From a virus (Duplodnaviria; Caudoviricetes): 64,000 nt of DNA. Where the stretch lies: IMG/VR virus record IMGVR_UViG_3300028888_000047, positions 32,001 through 96,000 of that record; one strand, written 5' to 3'. A model generated the notes under the pieces. The model was not told where the DNA came from. It was given only the letters and a program-made list of their open reading frames with translations, and did not search any database. Every line of letters begins with the position of its first letter. Position 1 is the first letter of the stretch. A program made the position numbers and the translations under genes. Positions 5,856-7,339 of this stretch are shown piece by piece.

Positions 5856-6021
5856 ATAACAGGAAAAGGGTACTTAATTAAGTACCTTTTTTTCTTATAA
5901 TATAATTTCAAGTTTAACACTATTTCACATATTTTTAGAAAAAATATAAAAGTGTTAATTTACTTGCATATATCAATTTTATTTATTATCTTTGGGATGT
6001 AATTCAATAAATAATTAATAT

Positions 6022-6387
6022 ATGGAAAAATTAAAGACAATTGATTTAAACCCTGTTCAATTATCAATTGAGCCAAAAACAAGGCTTTTGGTCGTTAAGC
6101 AAGGCGACAATATGGTGAAGATTACACGAGACAGCGTAATCAACATGAAAAAGCTCCGTGAAGGGGGTTTTGAATCAAATGTGTTCACTTCTACCTTATC
6201 ACCAAGAAATCGCTTCACAATGGCTGAAAATGGCTCTATCACCATTGTCTGTAAGGATGACTACGAGGATAATATTGTGCTCATCGCCAACCATAAGAAG
6301 TTGGATGACTTAAAGCGAATTCAAGACTTCGTGGATAAAAATAAGGCAAGAATTGCGTGGGAAAGAGAATTTAAAGGGAGGTATTAA
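6022..6387 (+). CDS. hypothetical protein
   Basis: 121-aa ORF with own promoter at ~5987. Confidence 0.75.
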   Translation: MEKLKTIDLNPVQLSIEPKTRLLVVKQGDNMVKITRDSVINMKKLREGGFESNVFTSTLSPRNRFTMAENGSITIVCKDDYEDNIVLIANHKKLDDLKRIQDFVDKNKARIAWEREFKGRY

Positions 6388-6457
6388 AAAAACCTCCATC
6401 TTTCCTTCTTTTTTACAGATTTTTTGTGTATATTTGTACACAAGAGAAAGAAGTTTT

Positions 6458-6594
6458 GGGGCAATAAAAGCCATATGCTTCAGCAGTATACCTAATTGTA
6501 ATTTGGTATCGTCTGTTTCTGTAGGTACTTAATTAAGTACCCCTATAGTATACTGCACAAATCTTGCGTCAAAGTATATACAAATTGTTGCCCC
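6458..6594 (+). ncRNA. structured leader or ncRNA
   Basis: Nested stems GGGGCAATAA/TTGTTGCCCC and GCAGTATAC/GTATACTGC enclosing a palindrome copy, downstream of promoter TATATTTG at ~6430. Confidence 0.5.
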
Positions 6595-6627
6595 TTTATA
6601 TGTATACTGTTTAATAAAGGAGTAACA

Positions 6628-6867
6628 ATGAGCAATAAAATTAATAGATATAGGGAAGTTCAATCCACATCGTTTGAAGAATTCTTCAATGCAGTAACAG
6701 ATACAGGAGTATGTGAGTGCTGCGATAATTATGAAGAGTGCGTCCAATACATAGGACAGGATAATATTGTAACAGTGTCAGGTAATGGATGCTCAGGATT
6801 CGACTCTTCAATAGAAAACATCAAAAAGCATTTCTTACTTGAGAAATGTGTCCCCATAGGTACTTAA
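6628..6867 (+). CDS. small Cys-containing hypothetical protein
   Basis: 79-aa ORF with AAGGAG upstream. Confidence 0.65.
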   Translation: MSNKINRYREVQSTSFEEFFNAVTDTGVCECCDNYEECVQYIGQDNIVTVSGNGCSGFDSSIENIKKHFLLEKCVPIGT

Positions 6868-6884
6868 TTAAGTATATATGTACT

Positions 6885-7244
6885 ATGAAAGTAACAGTAC
6901 ATTTCTTTGATAAAAAAGGAAAAGAATTCGTGTATCCTTGTTTTCACACAGCGATTAGAATGTTTGGAGGGTACAAGACACCATATGAATACATTTCTTT
7001 TCATAGTATTGAAGTGTTAGATGATAATTCCCCTGTAATACAAGAGTTAAAACAAAGAGCAGCGGAAGAGGGATTAACAACAGAAGTCATACCAATAGAA
7101 GAGGAAATAGGTACTTATTTAAGTACATATGAACATATAATAAGTAGAGAAGCAAGAAGAATAATAAAAATTATTATTGAAACTCTTTTAGTAATGTTTA
7201 CATTATATCTTATATTATATACTGCAATAAAGATATGTTATTAA
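6885..7244 (+). CDS. hypothetical protein with C-terminal transmembrane helix
   Basis: Start moved to MKVTVHF; hydrophobic C-terminus. Confidence 0.6.
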   Translation: MKVTVHFFDKKGKEFVYPCFHTAIRMFGGYKTPYEYISFHSIEVLDDNSPVIQELKQRAAEEGLTTEVIPIEEEIGTYLSTYEHIISREARRIIKIIIETLLVMFTLYLILYTAIKICY

Positions 7245-7339
7245 AAAAACATATCTTTTTTTTATATATGCATGAATAAAAAATACCTATAGCCAAATCA
7301 GCTATAGGTACTTAATTAAGTACATATTAATAATATCTT

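Follow-up and report, generated by a model that had tools for sequence, protein, structure and literature searches.

What does a 16-bp palindrome do in a phage genome, when its copies are found within a terminator, inside a structured leader, across a stop codon, in a coding frame and between convergent genes? This question is raised by the window, a 64,000-nt stretch of virus DNA that comprises bases 32001–96000 of a 317,464-bp virus record (IMGVR_UViG_3300028888_000047, hereafter G000; completeness estimate 95%). The palindrome, GTACTTAATTAAGTAC, is perfect over its 16 bp. Exact copies were found at window positions 5870, 6525 and 7308, and copies with a single change at 6860 (C16T, the last base) and 7111 (A8T), with spacings of 655, 335, 251 and 197 bp; TAG precedes four of the five, and AGG precedes the copy at 5870. 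An earlier note on this DNA had described five 16-bp palindromes with these gaps, four of them behind TAG and each in one of the five gene contexts named above. The motif count in the window bore this out, except that the copies at 6860 and 7111 are one-change variants and not exact palindromes. With up to three mismatches allowed, six matches were found in the window versus 0.75 expected (sd 0.87), a number reached in none of 100 shuffles, and since the sixth match, at 55621, carries three mismatches, the statement that there are no copies elsewhere in the window also holds. The data showed that the copies are real, that they are confined to one region of the genome, and that they are conserved across a clade of phages and in position. 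Our tentative answer to the question is that the palindrome is kept by selection as a cis-acting boundary element of the early-gene block of this clade, which would serve both as a docking site for a putative factor and as a crossover seam.

The distribution of the palindrome was compared in the whole genome, in related phages and in sequence collections. In G000 all 11 copies with up to two mismatches lie within bases 17168–39308, which corresponds to 22 kb or 7% of the genome. Hence, the five copies in the window do form a dense group, but this group is the right-hand end of a set of 11 that begins 14.8 kb upstream of the window. The 22-kb block consists of small open reading frames (ORFs), mostly on the plus strand, of which 59 of 65 have no Pfam family (E ≤ 0.01) and 58 of 65 have no PHROG family. 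A scan of 2.9 million viral contigs for the exact motif gave 44 loci, and the multi-copy loci among them belong to six large contigs. Six relatives contain 7, 7, 7, 6, 6 and 11 copies with up to two mismatches, each set confined to 18–23 kb, and a reversed-pattern control gave 0–2 matches per genome. The relatives are diverged from G000, as the identity of their UvsX-like proteins is 79% for G006, 68% for G005, 62% for G002 and 59% for G003, and the early blocks of G001, G003, G004 and G005 share with that of G000 only 3–11 short blastn high-scoring segment pairs. In the closest relative, G006 (about 71% nucleotide identity), the five window sites are found at matching positions. A metagenome search with an 18-mer returned at least 120 loci, and among the matches listed none was closer than about 73–80% identity to the early block. 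In 185,579 prokaryote species genomes the exact 16-mer was found at 116 loci, nearly all of them single copies in unrelated taxa. This count is near the chance level that we estimate for a 16-mer in 596 Gb, which means that at exact stringency GTACTTAATTAAGTAC is not a host regulon motif. There were two multi-copy cases among the prokaryote genomes: a 17-kb contig of a metagenome-assembled genome (MAG), G008, which looks like a fragment of a relative, and a Bacillota MAG with a duplicated terminator (G009). The motif is thus not scattered genome-wide and the syntenic region of relatives contains it, so that neither of the two outcomes named in the earlier note as refuting its proposal was observed. 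A DNA-level protein site, the general idea of that note, stays the leading reading.

The sites in the window, and the genes and the leader to which they belong, are as follows.

5022–5855, plus strand: gene of the GP88 family (PF17338, Pfam E 2.6e-31), the synteny anchor of the five-site cluster, with a G006 homologue that is 84% identical

5870–5885, no strand assigned: site 1, exact palindrome, equal to genome position 37870

6458–6594, plus strand: structured leader (or a small RNA) whose tip carries site 2, downstream of a host-type promoter box (TATATTTG at 6429–6436)

6525–6540, no strand assigned: site 2, exact palindrome at the apex of the conserved folded leader

6860–6875, no strand assigned: site 3, with C16T; its TAA is the stop codon of the ORF at 6628–6867, and the next ORF begins 9 nt further on

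6885–7244, plus strand: fast-evolving 119-aa ORF with a C-terminal hydrophobic tail, which contains site 4

7111–7126, no strand assigned: site 4, with A8T, in-frame GTYLST within the ORF at 6885–7244

7308–7323, no strand assigned: site 5, exact palindrome between convergent genes, 16 nt past the stop of the minus-strand gene at 7340–7903

Site 1 is the top of a hairpin flanked by AAAAGG and CCTTTT and followed by a T-run (5864–5893), just past the stop codon of the GP88-like gene, and together with 12-nt flanks it folds at −14.1 kcal/mol. The leader around site 2 has a fold energy of −45.3 kcal/mol (z −2.48), its consensus structure with G006 contains 34 shared pairs and zero compensatory changes, as judged from these two sequences only, and although it is non-coding its sequence is better conserved in G006 than the adjoining ORFs. 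Site 5 touches the terminator hairpin (7286–7308) of the minus-strand gene at 7340–7903, which was recorded as a terminator-like site on the minus strand of locus L276 (19713–19681).

The conservation of the palindrome at the nucleotide level was analyzed in 62 sites, some of which are orthologous and hence not independent. The data showed that 28 of the 62 sites are exact, and that positions 3–7 and 12–14 are invariant in all of them. The changes are located at the dyad centre (20 at positions 8–10), at position 11 (three) and at the outer ends (18 in total, with 13 at position 16, one at position 15, and two each at positions 1 and 2), and there were no compensatory double changes in the core. 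Invariant arms together with a tolerant dyad centre and tolerant ends are the pattern that would be expected of an operator for a symmetric dimer. When G000, G006 and two metagenome versions, L326 (identical to L318) and L352, were compared, the identity of the segments flanking the sites was 0.63–0.81 up to site 3, and 0.30–0.55 between sites 3 and 4 and between sites 4 and 5, while the five sites themselves differed by 0–2 letters. The position of site 3 is kept in all four lineages. Site 4 lies in frame, as GTYLST, in an ORF of 115–119 aa in G000, L326 and L352, although the identity of the protein to that of G000 is 40% in L326 and 30% in L352. The same A8T change abolishes the TAA stop at site 4 in these three lineages and leaves 15 of the 16 bases in place; in G006 the stop is intact. 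Because the site is kept while the protein is 30–40% identical, the silent positions at site 4 must be held by something besides the protein. These data show that the palindrome is under its own nucleotide-level selection that overrides gene context, as the earlier note had proposed, and this is true even inside a fast-evolving gene.

The sites have a regular placement with respect to the early genes. Eight of the 11 sites in G000 and six of the seven in G003 begin 0–40 nt past a stop codon, and some sites end 2–26 nt ahead of the next ATG. All sites are in the sense orientation of the co-oriented early genes, and in that direction the consensus is (A)TAG-core-NTATA, which lengthens the palindrome. 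The palindromes are separate from the promoter repeats of the TAnnTTTG type and from intrinsic terminators. In 20 kb, 29 terminator-like sites were found versus 11.3 in shuffles; these are GC-rich hairpins with T-runs, and one of the 29 is a palindrome site. The core hairpin alone has an energy of about −4.8 kcal/mol and some sites reach −14 to −16 kcal/mol with their flanks, and among the 11 copies in G000 a long stem with a T-run was found only at genome position 37870 (window 5870). Where a promoter box follows a site, it does so at a variable distance of 69–250 nt, and four of the 11 sites in G000 have no box before the next gene. An Rfam 15 scan of the early blocks and of window positions 1–11000 gave only tRNAs as significant hits and no family for the palindrome or the leader.

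The early block was also compared with the contigs of two RNA-library runs of a single sample; these are assembled contigs, from which transcript starts and ends are not readable. At 100% identity such contigs bridge genome positions 31007–31877 and 38525–39308, and because they span the sites, the bridged sites are not strong terminators, if the contigs derive from RNA. At site 37870 the contigs of both runs stop 8–18 nt before the palindrome and resume about 160–170 nt after it; since this gap comes from one study, it was counted as no evidence. Contig joints that touch palindromes, with about 21 matching letters on the short side, were set aside as repeat artefacts. The summed contig depth in locus L276 (genome 19601–39600) ranges from about 29 to more than 11,000, with peaks at 25.6–26.9 kb and 28.3–29.0 kb, which fits strong, uneven expression of the early block but is not proof of it.

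The comparison of relatives showed that gene content is polymorphic at the sites. In G000 a 281-aa gene (genome 31027–31872) and the promoter stretch that follows it sit between the copies at 31007 and 31877, while in G006 a single copy joins the two flanking genes and a homologue of the 281-aa gene is located elsewhere. The slot after site 3 contains in G006 a 61-aa ORF that is unrelated to that of G000. In the closely related pair G001 and G002 (91–95% identical), a 42-bp site-bearing unit flanked by the direct repeat AACAAAA is found in G001 only, and one other site differs between them by the loss of its left half through an 11-bp deletion. The site at G000 20067 is common with that at G006 378600, although their flanks have no homology. 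Such gain, loss and replacement of genes is compatible with a cassette-boundary element, and because near-identical copies are located at many gene borders, they could act as crossover seams. Tandem paralogous genes of about 75–115 aa, separated by palindrome copies, were also observed in G001 (14143–15950) and in G005 (260743–261638), which suggests duplication of gene-plus-site units.

Taken together, the invariant arms without compensatory change, the tolerant centre and ends, and the position of one site inside a translated ORF would point to a symmetric factor on duplex DNA. We infer that the site is recognised by a protein, on DNA and not on RNA, and that the binding affects transcription. 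By our figures, action at the DNA level is a tentative preference, and action at the RNA level is unlikely though worth serious consideration. In the mechanism that we propose, a sequence-specific and probably dimeric factor, encoded by either the phage or the host, would dock on duplex DNA through the invariant arms ACTTA and TAAGT. Occupied sites would then insulate or shut down the adjoining early transcription units by blocking read-through, in a stoperator-like manner, and the near-identical copies may double as crossover seams for the insertion, loss and replacement of early genes.

Candidates for partner proteins were searched for with Pfam in 427 ORFs, comprising 108 large ones, 65 of the early block and 254 others; outside the block, the search did not extend to ORFs of 45–69 aa. 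No ParA, ParB, TubR/TubZ or replication initiator was found in these 427 ORFs by Pfam, so the look-up of ParB, TubR or initiator genes proposed in the earlier note came back empty, and the same scans detected no integrase (Phage_integrase), transposase, Y1_Tnp or HUH nuclease, no RNase III, Cas6-like or KH/S1 protein, and no repressor module or plasmid-maintenance genes. No phage RNA polymerase was detected among the large ORFs by Pfam or PHROGs. A host factor common to the hosts of these phages is a possible reader. LexA was rejected as a candidate, as the palindrome fits neither of the Bacteroidota LexA boxes, GGA-N5-TCC and CTAA-N5-TTAG (PMC8565304). Restriction-site logic was also rejected, as GTAC, TTAA and TTAATTAA are not depleted in G000.

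Several observations weigh against a DNA-bound boundary factor. The only helix-turn-helix protein conserved in the clade, the HTH_37 protein encoded at L060:8148–9020 on the minus strand, is present in G002, G003, G005 and G006 and not in G007 (a distant jumbo phage), and its putative recognition helix is not conserved, which makes the protein a poor candidate for reading an invariant site. Of two genes within the five-site cluster, the one for 121 aa was found in one of five other genomes and the one for 79 aa in none. The palindromes overlap no promoters, and the ends of homology blocks are not significantly enriched near the sites (3 of 38 versus 1.06 expected, p = 0.088). Terminator-like hairpins are located within 70 nt downstream of eight of 51 sites, versus 2.2 expected (upstream, four of 51 versus 2.6 expected), and a roadblock would gain little from a site just ahead of a terminator. 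Pairing of the flanks beyond the core exceeds that of shuffled flanks (p = 0.0044), and sites 1 and 2 cap larger conserved hairpins. Finally, in the sense orientation C16T was found 13 times and G1A twice, which corresponds to nine versus two orthologous groups (one-sided p of about 0.03 by our calculation); A15G and A11G, which like C16T are compatible with G-U pairing, were each found once, and T2C and T6C were not seen in the 62 sites. This asymmetry favours RNA or a single-strand hairpin, unless it is explained by a transcription-linked mutation bias, and a C-to-T bias of this kind on the sense strand could produce it without any RNA function. Many of these points would fit an element that acts as RNA, with a 6-bp stem and an AAUU loop, often lengthened by the flanks, that is read by a sequence-specific RNA-binding protein or a ribonuclease, and which could set 3′ ends, process early polycistronic mRNAs, release 3′-UTR fragments or control translation of the next gene. 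The sense orientation of all sites, the excess of G-U-keeping changes over their mirror images, the complementary flanks that differ in sequence yet stay complementary in the orthologues of site 1 in G006, L326 and L352, the location of site 2 atop the folded leader, the enriched order of stop codon, palindrome and terminator, the sites that end 2–5 nt ahead of an ATG, and the RNA-library contigs that bridge 31007–31877 and 38525–39308 are all on its side. On the other hand, the core stem shows no compensatory change in 62 sites despite UvsX identities of 59–79%, so that the stem would have to be read by its sequence, and RNA stems are not usually recognised in this way. Proteins that bind hairpins mostly depend on the loop, which here varies more than any other part of the site; the core hairpin is weak, and cleavage at site 4 would truncate an mRNA within its translated ORF. 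Neither an RNase III, Cas6-like or KH/S1 protein nor a match to an Rfam family was found, as described above. We therefore consider the RNA-level element unlikely, though less so than the remaining alternatives.

The palindrome could also be a seam or a selfish mini-element with no reader, either a cassette-borne patch of homology, like the promoter-early stem-loops (PeSLs) of T4-type phages, or a repeat spread in the manner of repetitive extragenic palindromes (REPs) or miniature inverted-repeat transposable elements. The polymorphic gene content, the 42-bp unit with its AACAAAA repeats in G001 and not in G002, the half-site lost by an 11-bp deletion, the unrelated flanks of G000 20067 and G006 378600, and the copies between tandem paralogues in G001/G002 and G005 are as this explanation would have them, and T4-type PeSLs are reported to behave likewise (PMC2839356; PMC4122927). 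However, the five sites stay in place in four lineages with 0–2 changes per 16 bases while their flanks diverge by about 30%, which requires purifying selection at each site, and site 4 is kept at silent codon positions of a fast-evolving gene. Moreover, a length of 16–24 bp is small for homologous exchange, the ORFs scanned gave no transposase, HUH nuclease or integrase, and the block ends are not significantly enriched at the sites, which makes a seam without a reader improbable. The earlier note had proposed a protein-loading array near a candidate origin, with the role of a partition centromere, a packaging site or a replication site. A multi-copy 16-bp palindrome confined to one genome region, with its densest cluster of five copies in 1.45 kb, would agree with this proposal, and dispersed centromere palindromes exist in the linear plasmid-prophage N15. 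Nevertheless, the copies do not form a local 1.5-kb loading array, as they extend over 22 kb in G000 and over 18–23 kb in relatives, where in every case they follow gene borders, and their number and place vary between close relatives. The replication and recombination genes are T4-like, integrase and plasmid-maintenance genes were not found, and because the scans detected no ParA, ParB, TubR/TubZ or initiator-type partners, a centromere, packaging or origin function is unsupported and appears very unlikely. Still less probable is a promoter for a phage sigma factor or for an unrecognised phage RNA polymerase, comparable to the hairpin promoters of N4. Some sites do lie after an upstream terminator and 20–130 nt before the next ATG, the flank 3′ of the site is TATA-rich, and the phage encodes two sigma70-family proteins, but many sites abut stop codons or end 2–5 nt before an ATG and leave no room for a start site, one lies within an ORF, well-defined promoter repeats exist separately for the early block and for the remaining genome, and no phage RNA polymerase was detected in the large ORFs. 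Hence, the boundary element read by a DNA-binding factor is kept as the preferred, though tentative, explanation.

The closest known system is that of the PeSL cassettes. These are described as repeated stem-loops with early-promoter motifs in the hyperplastic regions of T4-type phages, and indels and replacements are reported to be mediated by them (Arbiol et al. 2010, PMC2839356; Comeau et al. 2014, PMC4122927). Like the palindrome, they are a repeated stem-loop motif of a T4-like myovirus and are concentrated in a plastic block of small ORFan early genes. In both cases the motif lies after the stop of a gene and ahead of the promoter or start of the gene that follows, at places where relatives differ by insertions, deletions or replacements. 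In the present case, all 11 sites of G000 lie in the hyperplastic early block, and indels and replacements between relatives were found at the motifs, with a weak enrichment of block ends. The composite motif of promoter and stem-loop, in contrast, is not found here. A PeSL joins a sigma70-type promoter to a stable, often polyG/polyC, terminating stem-loop of variable sequence, whereas the clade studied here has one AT-rich 16-mer, near invariant, with a weak hairpin and apart from promoters, and one of the 11 palindromes in G000 resembles a terminator. No account of the GTACTTAATTAAGTAC motif was found in the literature on PeSLs and on palindromes of jumbo phages, the rumen and Prevotella, which is not proof of its absence.

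Similarities were also observed to other repeated sites. The stoperators of Cluster A mycobacteriophages, such as L5, are thought to halt elongating RNA polymerase when bound. Like the palindrome, they are many copies of a short conserved site, located in short intergenic gaps and over stop or start codons, and co-oriented with transcription. They differ in being asymmetric 13–14-bp sites, bound by the immunity repressor and spread genome-wide in temperate phages, while here a perfect palindrome is limited to 7% of the genome, in a T4-like phage that is apparently lytic and in which no integrase or repressor module was found among the 427 ORFs. The attC sites of integrons are similarly hairpin-forming sites right after the stops of co-oriented small genes, with a gene found between two copies where a relative has one, and with a variable centre, conserved arms and strand asymmetry. 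At 57–141 bp, however, attC is far longer than the site described here, where many cassettes have their own promoters and where neither a tyrosine recombinase (427 ORFs, Pfam) nor attI was found. REPs and the mosaic elements built of them (BIMEs) in enterobacteria are also extragenic palindromes in many copies, located downstream of genes at their 3′ ends or between two convergent genes, and REPs have a role in mRNA as well as in DNA that binds proteins, but they are GC-rich, 35–40 bp long, genome-wide and linked to the RAYT transposase, none of which is true here. The parS sites of ParB are, like the palindrome, multi-copy 16-bp palindromes in one genome region, in contrast to which the sites in this clade have another sequence, as the earlier note had pointed out for the parS consensus, and follow the gene borders of the early block, with no ParA or ParB found by Pfam in the ORFs scanned.

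An analogous arrangement may exist outside the clade. The 371,504-bp jumbo phage G007, the UvsX of which is 41% identical, has no GTACTTAATTAAGTAC motif, and it has its own palindrome, GCCAGTACTGGC, with seven exact copies, all in 14 kb (252771–267098) around a GP88 homologue; with up to one mismatch there are 29 copies, 21 of them between 247 and 275 kb. This may be a parallel system. A broader proposal, which we regard as rather unlikely, is that the palindrome and its putative reader form a cassette platform of lytic jumbo phages, that is an insulator and a targeted crossover point for host-takeover genes, functionally integron-like without a tyrosine recombinase, with GCCAGTACTGGC as the parallel in a distant phage.

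The gene content of G000 is that of a T4-like jumbo myovirus. Pfam and PHROGs identified gp32, a UvsX-like recombinase, a gp46-like SbcC, a DnaB-type helicase and a primase, and also NrdD, baseplate and tail-tube proteins and a Gp23 fragment. G000 further encodes two sigma70-family proteins, an IF3 homologue, DnaK/DnaJ, RNA-repair enzymes and many DNA methyltransferases, and its lifestyle is apparently lytic. Four encoded proteins, all on the minus strand at L069:13554–14078, L069:12583–13545, L072:13978–14700 and L068:14016–14411, include the full-length IF3 homologue, the two sigma70-family proteins and a protein with a Tad2-like (anti-Thoeris) domain. With genetic code 11 the coding density is 88%. 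Among repeated 12-mers, boxes of the TTGTATATTTGTA type are the most frequent; we take them to be the Bacteroidota TAnnTTTG promoter box, and they are found across the whole genome. A BACON domain and OmpA domains are also present, and they fit a Bacteroidota host. The repeats ATTATTATCTTTCA, AAATGATTATCTTTG, GTTAAACAATTAAA and ATGTTAATTAAATG are specific to the early block, at genome 16–37 kb (window 1–5000 and locus L005), and resemble a promoter and leader arrangement dedicated to the early genes, while another repeat, AATATTCCACGTTAAATAATGTTAAA, marks the genome outside the early block. At window 2507–2724, after a host-type promoter box at about 2362, there are two tandem 109-nt repeats, 75% identical and with no convincing ORF, which may be a pair of non-coding RNAs. 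GATC is absent from the 317,464 bp of G000, versus about 656 expected, GGTACC is found four times versus 22 expected, and CTAG at about half its expected count, a pattern that resembles strong avoidance of restriction sites; the genome also has at least nine genes for DNA methyltransferases. In G001 and G002, ARAGORN reported a tRNA-like gene with a four-base anticodon (tagt) adjoining a tRNA-Thr (L050:9759–9849 and L052:10099–10189).

In conclusion, the boundary palindrome of the early-gene block is real, clade-wide and strongly selected, and it is not a partition, packaging or origin array. A 16-mer that is near invariant across phages with core recombinases about 60% identical, and even in a coding frame, points to a specific reader, and it also offers a simple sequence handle for finding that reader. 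Most of the uncharacterised host-takeover and anti-defence genes of jumbo phages lie in their early-gene blocks, the regulation and reshuffling of which are poorly understood. The host group here, the gut and rumen Bacteroidota, is especially little studied. If the sites direct gene exchange, this would explain the turnover of accessory genes in the clade, and the sites could be natural landing pads for the engineering of such phages.

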